DNA from: a virus | Lineage: Duplodnaviria; Heunggongvirae; Uroviricota; Caudoviricetes | Length of the DNA stretch: 23,166 nt | Reading direction: 5' to 3' (one strand) | IMG/VR virus record: IMGVR_UViG_2565956631_000014 | Location: 1-23,166 of that record | Part shown: piece after piece, positions 3,474 through 23,166 of the stretch | Position numbering within the stretch: the first letter of the stretch is position 1 | How the letters are laid out: the number at the start of each line of letters is the position of its first letter | Notes under the pieces: generated by a model | Told to the model about the DNA's origin: nothing | The model's input: only the letters and a program-made list of their open reading frames with translations | The model's database searches: none | Made by a program: the position numbers and the translations under genes

Positions 3474-5600
3474 ATGGCAGAGACATTAGAGAAAAAACAT
3501 GAGCGGATCATGCTCAGGTTTGACCGCGCCTATTCTCCACAGCAGGAAGTGCGCGAAAAGTGCATTGAAGCTACGAGGTTTGCTCGTGTCCCCGGAGGTC
3601 AATGGGAAGGAGCAACGGCGGCTGGAACTAAGCTTGATGAGCAGTTCGAGAAGTATCCTAAGTTTGAAATCAATAAGGTAGCAACTGAACTTAACCGCAT
3701 CATTGCAGAATACCGCAATAACAGAATCACCGTTAAGTTTCGTCCTGGTGACAGAGAGGCAAGCGAAGAGTTAGCCAATAAATTAAATGGTCTGTTCCGT
3801 GCTGACTACGAAGAAACTGATGGCGGTGAGGCTTGCGATAATGCATTTGACGACGCTGCTACTGGTGGTTTCGGTTGCTTCCGTTTGACGTCGATGCTGG
3901 TCAATGAATACGACCCCATGGACGATCGTCAGCGTATTGCTATTGAACCGATATACGACCCGTCGCGCTCTGTGTGGTTTGACCCTGACGCTAAGAAATA
4001 CGACAAATCTGACGCGTTGTGGGCGTTCTGCATGTATTCGTTGTCACCTGAAAAATATGAGGCTGAATACGGAAAGAAACCTCCTGCTTCTCTGGACGTA
4101 ACGTCTATGACCAGTTGGGAATATGACTGGTTTGATGCAGATGTTATTTACATAGCGAAGTATTACGAAGTTCGTAAAGAGTCTGTTGATGTTATCAGTT
4201 ATCGACATCCAATCACTGGAGAGATTGCAACATACGACAGTGATCAGGTCGAAGATATTGAAGATGAACTGGCAATAGCTGGATTTCAGGAAGTTGCAAG
4301 GCGCTCAGTGAAGCGCCGTCGTGTGTATGTATCAGTAGTGGATGGTGATGGTTTCCTTGAGAAACCTCGACGTATTCCTGGTGAGCATATCCCCCTCATC
4401 CCGGTTTATGGAAAACGCTGGTTCATTGATGACATTGAGCGTGTCGAAGGGCACATTGCAAAAGCAATGGATCCACAGCGTTTGTACAACCTTCAGGTTT
4501 CAATGCTGGCTGATACTGCAGCACAAGACCCCGGTCAGATCCCTATAGTTGGCATGGAGCAAATTCGTGGACTTGAGAAGCACTGGGAGGCTCGCAACAA
4601 GAAACGCCCAGCGTTCTTGCCGTTGCGCGAAGTGAGAGATAAATCTGGCAACATTATCGCTGGAGCTACCCCGGCAGGATATACACAGCCTGCGGTTATG
4701 AATCAGGCATTGGCTGCATTACTACAGCAAACCAGTGCTGATATTCAGGAGGTTACAGGCGGCAGTCAGGCCATGCAGCAGATGCCAAGTAATATTGCTC
4801 AGGAAACGGTTAACAACTTGATGAACAGAGCAGATATGGCTTCGTTTATCTATCTGGACAATATGGCGAAAAGTCTTAAACGCGCTGGTGAAGTATGGCT
4901 GTCAATGGCGCGTGAAGTGTACGGTTCAGAACGTGAAGTGCGCATCGTTAACGAAGATGGAAGTGATGATATCGCTGTCCTGAGCGCACAGGTTGTTGAC
5001 AGGCAAACAGGGGCTGTTGTTGCGTTAAATGACCTTTCTGTCGGTCGATACGATGTGACGGTTGATGTTGGACCAAGCTACACAGCACGACGTGATGCAA
5101 CGGTTTCTGTACTGACAAATGTCCTTAGCTCTATGCTTCCAACAGACCCAATGCGCCCGGCAATTCAGGGTATTATTCTGGACAATATCGATGGCGAAGG
5201 CCTTGATGACTTCAAAGAGTACAACCGAAACCAACTGCTGATATCTGGTATTGCAAAACCACGCAATGAGAAAGAGCAGCAGATTGTTCAACAGGCGCAA
5301 ATGGCAGCACAAAGCCAGCCAAATCCTGAAATGGTTCTCGCTCAGGCGCAAATGGTAGCAGCGCAGGCAGAAGCGCAAAAAGCAACTAACGAAACTGCTC
5401 AAACTCAAATCAAAGCATTTACTGCCCAGCAGGATGCGATGGAGAGTCAGGCAAACACTGTCTATAAACTGGCTCAAGCCAGAAACATCGATGACAAAGC
5501 AGTGATGGAGGCAATACGCCTTCTGAAAGATGTCGCCGAGTCACAACAACAGCAATTCCAGTCACCACCACAGTCACCGGCAGACTTAATGCCGAGTTAA
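3474..5600 (+). CDS. portal protein (P22 gp1 family)
   Basis: 708 aa from ATG 3474, directly after the TerL stop; the track ORF extends to 3402 only as an in-frame read-through overlapping TerL. Core similarity to P22 gp1 (KRRRVYVSVV, IPGEHIPLIPVYG) and a long Q/A-rich C-terminal helical barrel. Confidence 0.9.
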   Translation: MAETLEKKHERIMLRFDRAYSPQQEVREKCIEATRFARVPGGQWEGATAAGTKLDEQFEKYPKFEINKVATELNRIIAEYRNNRITVKFRPGDREASEELANKLNGLFRADYEETDGGEACDNAFDDAATGGFGCFRLTSMLVNEYDPMDDRQRIAIEPIYDPSRSVWFDPDAKKYDKSDALWAFCMYSLSPEKYEAEYGKKPPASLDVTSMTSWEYDWFDADVIYIAKYYEVRKESVDVISYRHPITGEIATYDSDQVEDIEDELAIAGFQEVARRSVKRRRVYVSVVDGDGFLEKPRRIPGEHIPLIPVYGKRWFIDDIERVEGHIAKAMDPQRLYNLQVSMLADTAAQDPGQIPIVGMEQIRGLEKHWEARNKKRPAFLPLREVRDKSGNIIAGATPAGYTQPAVMNQALAALLQQTSADIQEVTGGSQAMQQMPSNIAQETVNNLMNRADMASFIYLDNMAKSLKRAGEVWLSMAREVYGSEREVRIVNEDGSDDIAVLSAQVVDRQTGAVVALNDLSVGRYDVTVDVGPSYTARRDATVSVLTNVLSSMLPTDPMRPAIQGIILDNIDGEGLDDFKEYNRNQLLISGIAKPRNEKEQQIVQQAQMAAQSQPNPEMVLAQAQMVAAQAEAQKATNETAQTQIKAFTAQQDAMESQANTVYKLAQARNIDDKAVMEAIRLLKDVAESQQQQFQSPPQSPADLMPS

Positions 5601-15918: not shown

Positions 15919-16170
15919 TTATGTGTCTTTTGGGATTCTATCCAGTAACTCGTTGGAAATTTTATCAAGTAAAGATTTTATTTGTTTAAGATCTAATGAT
16001 TTGTCTACTGATGAGACGTCAGATGATAACGCATCCTCAAGAATTTGAACTATCTCTGAGTTCATAGATCGACCGTTTCGTTTAGCCCTTTCCGCAATAG
16101 CACTACGCATGCCGTCAGGCATTCTAACCGTAAATCTTTCTATGAAATTTGATTCGTCTTTTTCTGACAT
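15919..16170 (-). CDS. mnt: Mnt-like ribbon-helix-helix repressor
   Basis: 83 aa from ATG 16170 (track ORF has a 16-codon upstream extension). N-terminal RHH motif FTVRMPDGMRSAIAERAKRNGRSMNSEIVQILEDAL resembles P22 Mnt (FNFRMPMEVREKLKFRAEANGRSMNSELLQIVQDAL); C-terminal helical tail. Divergent from the arc-like gene. Confidence 0.7.
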   Translation of the reverse strand: MSEKDESNFIERFTVRMPDGMRSAIAERAKRNGRSMNSEIVQILEDALSSDVSSVDKSLDLKQIKSLLDKISNELLDRIPKDT

Positions 16171-16219
16171 TTTCTTATTCGCAAGGCATATGAGCAATAA
16201 AAAACACAGTAGCATCATA

Positions 16220-16290: not shown

Positions 16291-16467
16291 ATGATGAGCG
16301 ATGTTCTTTACAGTGGTCGTAAAAGTCAGAGTTTCCAGCTTCGTTTGCCAGCGCGAATGAAGGAGGAGATCAGACGCGTAGCTGAAATGGATGGAATTTC
16401 TATCAACTCTGCGATTGTGCAGCGACTGGCTAAAAGCCTGAGAGAGGAAAGAGCTAATGCCCAGTAA
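16291..16467 (+). CDS. arc: Arc-like ribbon-helix-helix repressor
   Basis: 58 aa from ATG 16291 (GGAG 6 nt upstream; alternative ATG 16276). RHH signature FQLRLPARMKEEIRRVAEMDGISINSAIVQRL is comparable to P22 Arc (FNLRWPREVLDLVRKVAEENGRSVNSEIYQRV). Confidence 0.7.
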   Translation: MMSDVLYSGRKSQSFQLRLPARMKEEIRRVAEMDGISINSAIVQRLAKSLREERANAQ

Positions 16468-16540
16468 AAATAGTGAAGCCCGGAAGTGCGCGAACACAAA
16501 CCGGGCCTCTATGTCAGTAACCGTACTCAAGGAAACTAAC

Positions 16541-17179
16541 ATGAATATTGTAGCAAAATCAGATTATAACTTCCAAGGATTCACTTTTAACCCTGTAACA
16601 GAGGGCGGGTCTATCTGGTTTACCTCCACCGAACTAGCTAAGGCTCTCGGCTATAAAAAAACTGATGCCATCAGCCAAATTTATGCCCGTAATGCTGACG
16701 AATTTTCCGACTCAATGTCATTGACCCTCAATATGAAGGTCAACGGAATAAACAATAGCTTACGTAACAAATCGGTCAGAGTTTACTCACTCCGAGGCGC
16801 TCACTTGGTGGCGATGTTTGCTTCTACGCCCAAGGCCAAAGAGTTCCGCCGCTGGGTGCTGGATATTTTGGATCGGCAGGCAGAATGCTCACCGATTGCA
16901 AAACAGTTTACTGACGAAGAACTGGTTAATCTCTGCTACTTACAATTGTGGATGGAGAAGAGTCAACAAATGTGCAAACACATCTACCCTGGAATGAAGC
17001 AAATTGGTTCTGAGCTTTCAGGAAAGATTTACGATATTGCATATGAGACTCGCTACATGTCAGAAGAAACCAAGAAATCGCTTCTTCGTGAAATGAAGAA
17101 TCTTGATCCCAACAATTTTGTCGTAAAGAACGCTCAGCCAATGCTGGCAAAACTTCGCGGCGAGGAATGGATTCATTGA
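16541..17179 (+). CDS. antirepressor-like protein with Bro-N-type N-terminal domain
   Basis: 212 aa from ATG 16541 (AAGGAA SD; track ORF starts 28 codons earlier). Bro-N-like motifs: GSIWFTSTELAKALGY, VRVYSLRGAHLVAMFASTPKAKEFRRWV. Sits where ant lies in P22 immI. Confidence 0.6.
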   Translation: MNIVAKSDYNFQGFTFNPVTEGGSIWFTSTELAKALGYKKTDAISQIYARNADEFSDSMSLTLNMKVNGINNSLRNKSVRVYSLRGAHLVAMFASTPKAKEFRRWVLDILDRQAECSPIAKQFTDEELVNLCYLQLWMEKSQQMCKHIYPGMKQIGSELSGKIYDIAYETRYMSEETKKSLLREMKNLDPNNFVVKNAQPMLAKLRGEEWIH

Positions 17180-18223: not shown

Positions 18224-18252
18224 AACCCGCTTAATCGCGGGTTTTTTCTTTT
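18224..18252. terminator. Rho-independent terminator (strong for + strand, possibly bidirectional)
   Basis: Seen directly: AACCCGC-ttaatc-GCGGGTT hairpin followed by TTTTTTCTTTTC on the + strand. The hairpin also contains the stop codon of the minus-strand Mnt-like gene. Confidence 0.75.
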
Positions 18253-18488
18253 CTAAGAATATCAGCCGCAACTTCTTTTACTCGTTCCGAGATTAATGAG
18301 GCAAGCCTCTCTTCTTCATCACGATACCCGCTTACAGGTGATGGTTTGGAGAGCGATTCTTCCATCGTAGCCACAATTTCGGAATTGATAGACCTGTTAT
18401 TCATTTTTGCACGTTGCTTAATCTTGGCGTGCAACTCGTGCGTAAGCCTCAAGTGGAACTGCGCCTCATCGTATTTGCTGTACATCAT
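18231..18488 (-). CDS. mnt: Mnt-like ribbon-helix-helix repressor (second paralogue)
   Basis: 85 aa from the ATG ATG at 18488/18485 (GAGG 7 nt upstream); the 217-aa track ORF is an upstream read-through. Strong resemblance to P22 Mnt: FHLRLTHELHAKIKQRAKMNNRSINSEIVATMEESLSKPSPVSGYRDEEERLA versus FNFRMPMEVREKLKFRAEANGRSMNSELLQIVQDALSKPSPVTGYRNDAERLA. Confidence 0.7.
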   Translation of the reverse strand: MMYSKYDEAQFHLRLTHELHAKIKQRAKMNNRSINSEIVATMEESLSKPSPVSGYRDEEERLASLISERVKEVAADILRKEKTRD

Positions 18489-18620
18489 CAATGCCTCACC
18501 AAATGGGTGGAATGGCATCGTAAAACCTACTGTACAAATCAACAATCGTACCGTTTCGGTATGCAACAAATACCAACCGTAGCCATGCTGCGGCCATTCC
18601 TTGTATCTGGAGCAAATTAA

Positions 18621-21308
18621 ATGACAGACATTACAGCCAATGTTGTAGTGAGCATGCCTTCGCAACTCTTCACTATGGCGCGTTCTTTTAAAGCGGTTGC
18701 CAATGGCAAAATTTATATCGGTAAAATTGACACTGACCCGGTAAATCCTGAAAACCAGATTCAGGTTTATGTTGAGAATGAAGACGGTTCTCACGTTCCT
18801 GTTTCGCAACCAATCATCATTAACGCTGCTGGTTACCCGGTATATAACGGACAGATTGCCAAGTTCGTAACTGTGCAAGGCCACTCTATGGCTGTTTATG
18901 ATGCGTATGGTGCGCAGCAGTTCTATTTTCCTAATGTGCTGAAGTATGACCCTGATCAGTCATTGAAATATGTAGAAGGGGCATTGCTTGTTACTGACTT
19001 AGGTAATGGGACGTTTAAGAATAGTAGAAAAGACGTTGCCATTGGGGATAATCTAACAGGAACCAATTTTATTAGAATAAACGGCGGCGTCTATAAATGC
19101 ACTCCAGTTGCAACTGGAATTGTTACTGAGATCAAACATAGATACATTATCGCAGGCGGGGTTAAAAGCTACCTGTCTCATATTTCTAGGCATGTCAGTG
19201 GTACGCGTAGGCCGCTGAACTGGAAATTAGAATTCAGCATCATAGACGATGAGATTACCGCAGATCTTAAAGATCAGTATGGTTACACGACCATGGGATT
19301 TCAGGGGATTTACATAGACAGCAATGATGGAATGGTATACATCGGCTGGCAGACGCTAGACCCCGCATCGGTATGGGTTACGGTGCATGACTGGGTAACA
19401 GGAGCATTGGTAACACGTCTTCATTTTCCGAATAACGTTGGTGCACCAGAAGGCATCCACGTTTACCGAGTGGCAGGACAGCGTTACATCCTGCTGCCGT
19501 ACAGCCCATCTCGCACTATCAGAATTTACCCTATCGAAGATCCGCGTACGCTGGTTGATAAAACGCAGATTACAAACTTCACTGAATCAACACGCCTTGG
19601 AGTGCGATATCAGTTTAGTGGCTTTGGTAATACCCTGATATACGAAAATGCGGATATGGGTTGGCCGAAAATTTTTGATGTTGAGACAGGTGTATCCAAT
19701 ATCTTTAACACACTGGATATTAACAGCCTTATAGAAGGATCTTACAGTCCAATGGGGACTATTACGGTTGATGCAAATGTTGGAGGTCGCGGAGCCGGTA
19801 AACCAAAACGGCAGGGTGTCGCTCTTGGTTCTCAACGGATATTTGCTGGTATTGGTGCATCTACCACGGCGGGATCTGGAAATACTTTCGCAGGGTTGCA
19901 GGGTTATATTGAGTACAGCCTTAATGGTTCAGAATTAGGTCAGTACCTGCTGTCACCTGCAGATTTCAAAACATACTGGGATAGTTATTCAGGGAAGAGT
20001 GTTTACTCCACTGAAAATGAGGGGGTGCAGTCTTGTGATATTTCTGGCTCTGAGGAATTGTATCTTCTACAGTCTATTCGCTATGACAATGGGGGCGGAT
20101 CAAATTATAGGACTTTAAACATCATTCGCGCTAACTGTCCATCTAATGAACCTGGAACAGTAGACATGACTCCGCTATCCAATGCCTCATCACAGTTATT
20201 TAACCCTCGCGGAAGGGTGATTAACGCTGGCCGTCACCCTGTAAACCCGGCTGATGGTATTGCGCTATTTACATCGGCACAGGCTATTTGTGACTATTTG
20301 CGGAATACAGATGCAGGTAGATATGTGACATATCTTGAACAGGATATGCCACTGTTTGAAGGTGGGCCATCTGCGCCAGGACAGATGACGCTGCCAGCAT
20401 TCTGCCTATTGCAGATCGACTTCATCAACGGCGATACCTGGGAAATTACAGTTAATGGAACTAACAGGGCTAATAATTATACAGGAAGGATTTCCAAAAA
20501 CGGCGGGTACAACTCTTTTACTAAGGTGTCCTCCCGCAGCATGTCGATTCTCGGATCCCCTGGTCTGGTTGATGTATCAATTCGCTCACCTAACTCACTA
20601 AATCTTCCAGAATTTGCTGGAGACTGGTCTACTGGTGTAAGTATAGGAGCTGCAGGTGGGGTGACAAACTGGCAGCCAGAAGGAACAGGTAACGGAGCAT
20701 TATGGGAGTCAGGATATGCAAAAAACCGTGTGTTGCAGATATTCATGTCCACAACATCAAAACTGTTCTTCCGCTACGCAGACGATGCTATTCGCGCAGG
20801 TAACACAGGCTGGGCTGAGGCATGGTCGTCGCTGAACACGACCGTCGATTCAAGTGGTTTCATCAAAAAAGCCTCTCCGGTTGTGAAGATTTTCTCAGAC
20901 GGTAGTAGTGAAACAAATCGCGAATCAGATGGGGTAACCGTCACACGGCTGGCATTGGGTGAATATCTGATTGAGGGTTGCGTAGGTCTGAATGCAGATG
21001 CTTCATGGGGGGGGATTGATGGTGGATTTGAAATACCGCAGGACCGAAACAAGCAGCCGCTCATCTGGCTGGATTATGTTGTTAACCAAGATGGATCTGT
21101 GTTGGTGAAAACGTTTCACCGCACTCATGATAACTCGCCCGTTTTTGCACGTAACGACATCCCTGGTGTTTCGAACGGTGACCCGATCGACATTCCTGCT
21201 AATCAATTCGTTTCTGTGCGAGTACAGATGCCTGAGGATTCTGCATGGAATAAGCTTAAGGAACAACTAAATAAGGCTGAATTGATAGAAGATGATGTTG
21301 TGGAATAG
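18621..21308 (+). CDS. tailspike protein: P22 gp9-type head-binding N-terminus, uncharacterised receptor-binding C-terminal region
   Basis: 895 aa; GGAG SD. First ~115 aa ([43 protein letters not shown]...VLKYDPDQ) are near-identical to the P22-family tailspike head-binding domain. The remaining ~780 aa show no motif I recognise. Confidence 0.85.
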
Positions 21309-21999
21309 GTCTGTGATATTGGCATAGGTATAAGTGTCCGCTATTTGGGTGGCATTACGCCACCTTTTCATCAATCCAGTCCGACCACCACTGCATCATT
21401 TCTCTGCGCTTAATGTAGCGGATGCCTCACTATCACATAGTGATGGTTCATTACTGGTTTGCATAATGGATAGAGAACTGAGGATAAAAGATATCCCAAA
21501 ACTCCAAAATCTCATCTTTAGGATTTGCAGAAAGGGAGGCGTGAACAAATACCTGCGCATGAAAACGGAACTAGTCCAGATGTGATGTTTGTGGTGATCA
21601 CATACATCATCAACGATGCTCGTTATGGTGAGTTTTATGACTGCCAAGTAATGTGAAAATTGCGATGCGTACCAAATTGTGTACCAAATTAAAATCACAA
21701 ATCATGAAACCCTTGTTCATGGCGGTTCTCAGGGGTATTGCGCGTAATCGTGAAACAAAAAGGTAGATTGTTGCTTACCGTCATTCATCATTAGGTTAAA
21801 TCCGTTGTTTCTGCTGTCTGCCAGAGTATCAAATATCACCGTGCTAATCAGCTTTAGCGCAACAATTTGACAGCGAGTGGCAACAGATCATGTCAGATAA
21901 AAATGCGAGGGTAGTCACATTTTCTTGCACTTTATTCCAGCCAGTTCATAAGTATTTCCGTAAAAAGAACAGCTATTTGAAACTCCTGAGGGTTTGCTG

Positions 22000-23166
22000 T
22001 TGAAACGCCGTCTTATTATTGCTGCTTCTTTGTTCGTTTTTAACTTATCGTCTGGTTTTGCGGCGGAAAACATTCCTTTTTCACCTCAGCCTCCAGAGAT
22101 TCATGCCGGCTCCTGGGTATTGATGGATTACACCACCGGTCAGATCCTCACCGCGGGTAATGAGCATCAACAGCGCAATCCCGCCAGCCTGACAAAGCTG
22201 ATGACGGGCTATGTCGTGGATCGCGCTATCGATAGTCATCGCATTACGCCAGACGATATTGTCACCGTGGGGCGCGATGCGTGGGCGAAAGATAATCCAG
22301 TGTTTGTCGGTTCTTCACTGATGTTTTTGAAAGAGGGCGATCGCGTATCGGTACGTGATTTAAGCCGTGGTTTAATTGTGGATTCCGGAAATGATGCTTG
22401 TGTTGCTCTGGCTGACTATATTGCCGGTGGGCAACGGCAGTTTGTTGAAATGATGAACAACTATGCCGAGAAGCTGCATCTCAAGGATACGCATTTTGAA
22501 ACAGTGCATGGTCTGGATGCACCAGGCCAGCATAGCTCGGCTTATGATTTAGCTGTGCTTTCTCGCGCTATCATCCACGGCGAGCCCGAGTTTTATCATA
22601 TGTACAGTGAGAAAAGTCTCACCTGGAACGGTATCACCCAGCAAAACCGTAACGGGTTATTGTGGGATAAAACCATGAATGTTGACGGCCTGAAAACGGG
22701 TCATACTTCTGGTGCCGGGTTTAATCTCATTGCTTCGGCTGTAGATGGGCAGCGTCGTCTCATTGCAGTGGTAATGGGGGCTGACAGTGCAAAAGGTCGT
22801 GAGGAAGAGGCAAGAAAATTACTGCGTTGGGGGCAACAAAACTTTACTACGGTGCAAATTTTGCATCGTGGGAAAAAGGTCGGTACGGAACGCATCTGGT
22901 ATGGCGATAAAGAAAATATCGCCCTGGGAACGGAACAAGAGTTCTGGATGGTGCTACCGAAAGCCGAAATTCCACATATCAAAGCCAAATATACCCTTGA
23001 TGGTAAAGAGCTCACTGCGCCAATTAGCGCCCATCAGCGGGTAGGGGAAATTGAACTTTACGACCGTGATAAACAGGTGGCGCACTGGCCGCTGGTTACC
23101 CTGGAATCTGTCGGGGAAGGCAGCATGTTTTCCCGCCTGAGTGATTATTTCCACCATAAGGCTTGA
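22000..23166 (+). CDS. dacD: D-alanyl-D-alanine carboxypeptidase DacD (PBP6b), host chromosomal gene
   Basis: 388 aa from TTG 22000 (GAGGG 7 nt upstream; track ORF begins at TTG 21994). Signal peptide, SXXK (ASLTK), SXN (SGN) and KTG (KTGHT) motifs of class C penicillin-binding proteins; paralogous to but distinct from DacA. Matches my recollection of E. coli DacD. Stop is the last base of the window. Confidence 0.85.
   Translation: MKRRLIIAASLFVFNLSSGFAAENIPFSPQPPEIHAGSWVLMDYTTGQILTAGNEHQQRNPASLTKLMTGYVVDRAIDSHRITPDDIVTVGRDAWAKDNPVFVGSSLMFLKEGDRVSVRDLSRGLIVDSGNDACVALADYIAGGQRQFVEMMNNYAEKLHLKDTHFETVHGLDAPGQHSSAYDLAVLSRAIIHGEPEFYHMYSEKSLTWNGITQQNRNGLLWDKTMNVDGLKTGHTSGAGFNLIASAVDGQRRLIAVVMGADSAKGREEEARKLLRWGQQNFTTVQILHRGKKVGTERIWYGDKENIALGTEQEFWMVLPKAEIPHIKAKYTLDGKELTAPISAHQRVGEIELYDRDKQVAHWPLVTLESVGEGSMFSRLSDYFHHKA

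Follow-up and report, generated by a model that had tools for sequence, protein, structure and literature searches.

A 2851-type prophage attachment junction within sbcB, next to dacD, at the end of a P22-like prophage

The interval between the tailspike gene of a P22-like prophage and the host gene dacD, at positions 21309-21999 of the 23,166-nucleotide stretch of DNA analysed here (the window), very probably holds the attR of that prophage. The integrase responsible would be a tyrosine recombinase of the type found in phages 2851, mEp234 and Sf101, and the attachment core lies within sbcB. The junction is of an ordinary kind: its integration module is known and the site has already been described. 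What is established here is where the junction lies, which sequence forms the core, that sbcB is interrupted, and how many copies of a direct repeat beside the core there are and how far they are conserved. An initial annotation, made from the sequence alone, had placed the prophage-chromosome junction somewhere in this interval, between a tailspike ending at 21308 and dacD beginning at 22000, and both boundaries and the placement agree with our results. It had also considered the attachment site to be unidentifiable from one end and the 690 bp to be non-coding. Neither view is retained, as comparison with other sequences reveals the core, CGTAATCGTGAAA, and the interval, while lacking an intact gene, includes a remnant of humD (~21406..21656) and 16 codons of sbcB (21791..21744, minus strand). 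The features of this region are as follows:

18621..21308, plus strand: P22-type tailspike gene, the last intact prophage gene (895-aa open reading frame, Pfam)
21347..21369, plus strand: hairpin with a GGGTGGC-ATTAC-GCCACCC-like stem followed by TTTT, a weak candidate for a terminator
21362..21742, plus strand: P arm of a 2851-type att module, forming the phage-derived half of attR (megablast)
21406..21656, plus strand: decayed remnant of a humD/S24-peptidase (UmuD'-like) gene, with its stop codon at 21654-21656 (HCM-26C-1 annotation, ET151 alignment)
21666..21690, plus strand: two tandem copies of TG[C/T]GTACCAAAT at 12-bp spacing, in the P arm, 53-77 bp from the core
21703..21721, no strand: inverted repeat CATGAA-N7-TTCATG between the arm repeats and the core (read from the sequence)
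21729..21791, minus strand: severed 5′ end of sbcB, with native codons 1-16, MMNDGKQQSTFLFHDY (21791..21744), then four phage-derived codons, AQYP, and a stop
21743..21755, no strand: 13-bp att core CGTAATCGTGAAA, the putative crossover region of attR (five-way alignment, annotated and published cores)
21756..21772, no strand: host-type (B') sequence, matching the P' arm of mEp234 at 13 of 17 bases (imperfect homology)
21792..21999, no strand: native divergent sbcB-dacD intergenic region, 208 bp, undisturbed and equal in length in strain EC11
22000..23166, plus strand: dacD (penicillin-binding protein 6b), a host gene (open reading frame, annotation of homologues)

The junction was located with a megablast search, in which positions 21200-22300 served as the query against 5,426 complete E. 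coli genomes and 5,420 of these were matched. In prophage-free genomes, the large majority of those matched, the alignment runs from 21743 (query position 544) rightwards at 98-99.5% identity, and the annotated genes it covers are sbcB and dacD. Phages match the left part of the same query, from window positions 21348-21362 (query 149-163) to 21742-21772 (query 543-573), and include Stx phages 1717 and 2851, other Stx1a/2c/2a phages, the siphovirus mEp234 and the P22-like phage Sf101. From 21362 to the core, the P arm is 90-97% identical to the attP flanks of 2851, mEp234 and Sf101. This segment, 21362-21742, is present beside the attP core in free phage genomes and has no match in any prophage-free chromosome. 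The alignment to prophage-free E. coli that the initial annotation had proposed therefore finds the breakpoint, with collinearity only from 21743; the interval is neither wholly collinear with prophage-free chromosomes nor phage DNA that continues past dacD.

We compared five sequences at this position: the window, the empty site of EC11, the attP of mEp234, and the attR sequences of phage 1717 and HCM-26C-1. The sole block identical across the alignment is CGTAATCGTGAAA (21743-21755), with phage-type sequence to its left and host-type sequence to its right. The junction can be placed to the base. The sequence occurs once in the window, and is annotated as a “prophage attachment site (type 2851)” in mEp234 and as a “duplication due to insertion” in phage 1717. 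Integration at a tRNA or tmRNA gene was rejected, as ARAGORN finds no such gene in the whole window and a search of 21000-22200 against Rfam (E ≤ 1) gives no match. No integrase gene lies in or adjoining 21309..21999, which bears out the early observation that neither a tRNA-like sequence nor an integrase is visible here.

On the host side, sbcB had been considered only as a neighbor of dacD, yet it is the gene into which the prophage inserted: the opening 16 codons remain at 21744..21791 on the minus strand. The translated stub was compared with the intact SbcB of the empty-site strain EC11, which starts MMNDGKQQSTFLFHDYETF / MMNDGKQQSTFLFHDYETFG. Within the gene, the core spans codons F13-H14-D15-Y16 and the first base of E17. 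D15 and E17 of ExoI are part of the DEDD exonuclease motif, and this would explain the conservation of the 13 bp and make the core a dependable target. At the empty site of EC11 (locus L002), sbcB starts at 2549 and dacD at 2758. The start codon of dacD in the window is the TTG at 22000, as placed by mapping the HCM-26C-1 annotation onto the window and by the sequence itself, and the gene runs to the window end. To the right of the core, all DNA is from the host: an orphaned sbcB promoter together with 16 codons of the gene, the unaltered intergenic region, and dacD.

On the phage side, the tailspike carries a Head_binding domain (residues 1-113, E = 2.5e-67) and a Phage_tail_C_2 domain (residues 739-872). 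It had been described as the last gene before attR, which is correct for intact genes, but ∼430 bp of phage DNA follows, including the hairpin, the humD remnant and the P arm. The full distance from the tailspike stop to the core is 434 bp and also houses the direct and inverted repeats. The stem of the hairpin (21347-21353/21359-21365) is stable and present in both the MFE and centroid folds, and the fold z-score of the 86-nt stretch that contains it is −0.71, indistinguishable from shuffles. Our promoter and terminator scans covered the 21309-21999 interval and the attL region of ET151 without yielding an informative match, and the hairpin was not called as a terminator because its T run is only four T; a role as a possible terminator of the tailspike transcript end is as far as we take it.

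The hairpin also sits at a mosaic seam, around 21348-21412. P22-like phages of the Sf6, CUS-3 and Gally types match the window up to 21412, and the 2851-type att module common to mEp234, 1717 and Sf101 begins at 21348-21362. The overlap of ∼50 bp, which includes the post-tailspike hairpin, may serve as a recombination linker between modules. The att module itself is a separate mosaic block, common to lambda-like and Stx phages.

Beyond the seam lies the humD remnant. The homologous stretch in HCM-26C-1 is annotated by PGAP as a HumD family pseudogene (frameshifted, with an internal stop and a missing N-terminus), and prophage ET151 retains a complete version of the S24 gene (129 aa), from which the remnant differs by indels and substitutions and whose protein matches PF00717 (Peptidase_S24). 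No Pfam match was obtained for the open reading frames at 21334-21585 (plus strand), 21525-21656 (plus strand) and 21396-21698 (minus strand), and none of them is an intact S24 gene. The last of these, a minus-strand frame of 100 aa, is antisense to the humD remnant and was treated as spurious. The ET151 prophage carries an acyltransferase gene, probably for O-antigen modification, together with the intact S24/HumD gene between its tailspike and attR (L005 43488-45919). The window is without the acyltransferase, and its humD is decayed as in mEp234, whose P arm is also matched by 2851. Between the arm repeats and the core, both arms of the inverted repeat, CATGAA and TTCATG, are invariant in the four phage-bearing sequences of the five-way alignment. 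We offer the speculation that 21703-21721 is a candidate site for Xis or for a host bending protein.

Junctions of this kind are common. The attR-type junction, with at least 80% of the query covered, is found in 469 of the 5,426 complete E. coli genomes, and the attL-type junction, which is commoner, in 582; the junction type is carried by ∼9-11% of complete genomes. The excess of attL-type junctions suggests that many strains keep only an int-side remnant after decay, and hence a phage-type sbcB 5′ end. The site was first described for the Stx2c phage 2851 (Strauch et al., 2008, as cited in PMC4159516), and passages of the same paper report that the P22-like Shigella phage Sf101 enters sbcB at its 5′ end through a 13-bp core identical to that of 2851 (PMC4159516). 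According to the sections of other reports that deal with the locus, sbcB is one of four standard loci for Stx prophages in O157:H7, occupied in 26.9% of 346 strains (PMC8309913), and is routinely used in phage typing of O145:H28 (bioRxiv 10.1101/2024.03.06.583675). The integration target had been suspected to be unusual, with the remark that it is not a classic tRNA site; the remark holds, but the target is the published sbcB site, as described in these passages (PMC4159516, PMC8309913).

These frequencies bear on whether the prophage is still whole. It could be a defective remnant, in which case the junction is a fossil, the other end has been lost or rearranged, and attR is non-functional. 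The decay of humD in the P arm fits this idea, as does the outnumbering of attR-type junctions (469) by attL-type junctions (582), which implies that partial remnants exist at the locus; degraded non-Stx phages at sbcB have also been reported, in the portion of the work that treats this site (bioRxiv 10.1101/2024.03.06.583675). Nevertheless, the same decayed humD is found in mEp234, a viable phage, and 2851 also matches that P arm. The core and both arm repeats are intact, and the 21.7 kb upstream of the core is an uninterrupted P22-like late region. We therefore regard a fossil junction as unlikely and favor the attR of a P22-like prophage integrated through a 2851-type module.

The direct repeat was noted in the initial annotation at 21669..21690, and its coordinates are exact: GTACCAAATT-gt-GTACCAAATT, at 21669..21678 and 21681..21690. 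Within the window alone the 10-mer is not remarkable, with four matches (at most one mismatch) against 2.5 expected. At the attP of mEp234, GYGTACCARA occurs in five copies on one strand within 300 bp, compared to 0.03 expected in the 6.4-kb locus. The P arm holds two of them (L003 3307 and 3319, with 12-bp spacing) and the P' arm the other three (3558, 3569 and 3592), and the ATG of int follows at 3610, just after the P' trio (3558-3601). The P-arm pair is kept in mEp234, 1717, HCM-26C-1, ET151 and the window (as GYGTACCAAA in the window), and the P' trio is kept in ET151, mEp234, Sf101 and 2851, just upstream of the int ATG.

The integrase of ET151 (WP_326390071.1), a relative, has an N-terminal Arm-DNA-bind_3 domain (PF13356, E = 8.2e-18) and a tyrosine-recombinase catalytic domain, with PDB matches to structures of CP4-like integrase N-terminal domains and to lambda Int. 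The arm-type sites of lambda are P1 and P2 on one arm and P'1-P'3 on the other, and a distribution of two plus three over both arms is the classic pattern. Because a non-core motif sits two plus three on both arms and the integrase has an arm-binding domain, the five GYGTACCARA copies are probably arm-type integrase sites, and we treat them as candidates for this role. No match to the IHF consensus, WATCAANNNNTTR, was found in the attP locus of mEp234.

A different protein could use the same repeats. They may be sites for the excisionase (AlpA/HTH_17-type, adjoining int) or for a regulator of int transcription, rather than Int arm sites, which would suit two observations: the tandem P-arm direct repeats of lambda include the Xis sites X1 and X2, and the P' trio lies directly upstream of the int start codon, where a regulator of int would bind. 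We think this improbable, though worth keeping in mind, as the same motif is found on both arms in the two-plus-three pattern classic of arm-type Int sites, excisionase sites are normally restricted to one arm, and the integrase carries PF13356. There is still less to recommend a chance or neutral local duplication of GTACCAAATT with no role in recombination. The window by itself would allow it, since it holds only two copies and its 10-mer family is not enriched (four against 2.5 expected, at most one mismatch), but the five same-strand copies in mEp234 attP against 0.03 expected, the presence of repeats on both arms at positions kept in phages of three different morphotypes, and the arm-binding domain of the integrase all argue otherwise, making a chance origin very unlikely. 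A junction directly after the tailspike stop, which would make 21309-21742 host or other island DNA, has in its favor only the general expectation that no prophage gene follows the tailspike and can be dismissed as exceedingly improbable, with 21362-21742 adjoining the attP core in free phage genomes and absent from the sbcB-dacD region of prophage-free genomes.

Returning to attR and to the candidate arm sites within it, strand exchange very probably occurred inside the 13-bp core, CGTAATCGTGAAA, at 21743-21755, and the N-terminal domain of Int would bind the two P-arm repeats during excision. The int gene is expected at the other prophage end, beyond the window, and the source genome would contain it together with a matching attL. 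The lysogen ET151 provides a view of what that end may look like. There, CGTAATCGTGAAA occurs exactly twice (L005 6569 and 46006), 39.4 kb apart, flanking a P22-like prophage, and int (L005 6796-7974) and an AlpA-like excisionase gene are on the sbcB side of the prophage. The sbcB gene of ET151 is annotated as intact (474 aa), with the N-terminus MTGTDKQPTFLFHDYETF. Its first 11 codons, MTGTDKQPTFL, derive from the phage P' arm and are joined to FHDYETF, where the native protein has MMNDGKQQSTFL-FHDYETF. The rebuilt SbcB is thus one residue shorter than the native protein and differs at several N-terminal positions. An in-frame ATG and the following N-terminal codons are kept in the P' arms of mEp234, Sf101 and 2851, and the 2851-type module accordingly rebuilds the sbcB open reading frame with a surrogate 5′ end. 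By analogy with ET151, the body of sbcB at the attL of our prophage would join a phage ATG in frame, leaving the ExoI open reading frame intact, and the rebuilt gene may be expressed. Because the other end rebuilds the reading frame, sbcB should not be scored as disrupted by default in such lysogens.

Two consequences can be imagined. With a start codon, 11 codons and expression signals supplied by the phage, ExoI would be a phage-host chimera, expressed under control supplied by the phage, in about one tenth of E. coli genomes, and the orphaned promoter at attR would read through the core and the candidate arm sites into the prophage end and could influence excision. We consider this a tentative proposal, more doubtful than not, and even if it is true, neither effect may matter functionally. 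A scan of the P' arm found no sigma-70-like promoter, but the same scan also gave no candidate for the native sbcB promoter, and its negative outcome carries no weight. The literature passages that treat the site make no mention of the arm repeats or of the replacement of the sbcB N-terminus, a statement that extends to those passages and does not cover the original description of 2851. The term “arm-type” is absent from the Sf101 paper (PMC4159516). As sequence strings, the motif and the core returned only unrelated primers among the literature matches listed.

Comparison with known systems places the junction in context. Phage 2851 and Stx2 phage 1717 have the identical 13-bp core, a P arm 92-97% identical from 21362, and the same location in sbcB beside dacD. 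Only the att module is shared, however, as the window phage is a P22-like podovirus with a tailspike and the window contains no stx genes. Sf101 is closer in kind, being P22-like (Lederbergvirus) with the same core, the same layout from tailspike to attP and a P arm ∼90% identical, but it carries oacB (an O-acetyltransferase gene) between its tailspike and attP, where the window has none, and the receptor-binding domain of its tailspike differs from that of the window.

The overall organization resembles the attP of lambda, with a short core, long arms, two P and three P' repeats, int beside the P' arm, and an integrase with a separate arm-binding domain. It differs from lambda in the repeat, the core and the target, in an Int arm domain of the P4/CP4-57 type (PF13356), and in the lack of an IHF consensus match in the mEp234 attP locus; the arm sites here are also predictions from sequence. 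A further parallel is found in phage 21, which integrates in icd, and in phages that integrate in tRNA genes, where the phage arm carries a diverged duplicate of the displaced part of the target and the reading frame or gene is rebuilt. Here it is the 5′ end that is replaced, including the start codon and necessarily the expression signals, a mirror image of the 3′ end replaced in those systems.

Apart from the junction and dacD, the window carries a P22-like prophage's late half, encoding a KilA-N protein, terminase, portal, coat, injection proteins, Arc/Mnt-like repressors, a Bro-N/P22AR antirepressor and the tailspike. The shared parts are 96-97% identical to HK620, Sf6 and several E. coli prophages. 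The closest relatives, NZ_CP146561.1 and NZ_CP146567.1 (96.9% identity, 74% cover, window 557-21412), are stand-alone circular records of 39.9 kb from hospital-wastewater E. coli, and resemble a P22-like phage genome that was assembled as a separate replicon. The match to them ends at 21412, which makes a different att module probable. Several close relatives, including HK620, stop matching at ∼18960, and the receptor-binding part of the tailspike differs from theirs. A minus-strand open reading frame of 217 aa (18231-18884) overlaps the start of the tailspike gene, and only its C-terminal 89 codons (18231-18500) look real; on the minus strand, these encode an Arc/Mnt-like ribbon-helix-helix protein (Pfam Arc, E = 5e-15). 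Another Arc-like gene lies at 15919-16218 (minus strand) and the Bro-N/P22AR antirepressor at 16457-17179. The two Arc-like genes and the antirepressor form an immI-like region.

The value of this analysis is a junction annotated to the base and the division of a “non-coding” stretch into a humD remnant, a P arm, an sbcB stub and an intergenic region. Only the five computed candidate arm-type sites and the explicit surrogate 5′ end of sbcB are mildly new. Beyond correct annotation the finding is of little importance, and the locus is already used to type Stx prophages of O157:H7. The candidate arm sites and the surrogate 5′ end do provide testable hypotheses for an integrase that is spreading among P22-like, lambda-like and Stx phages.
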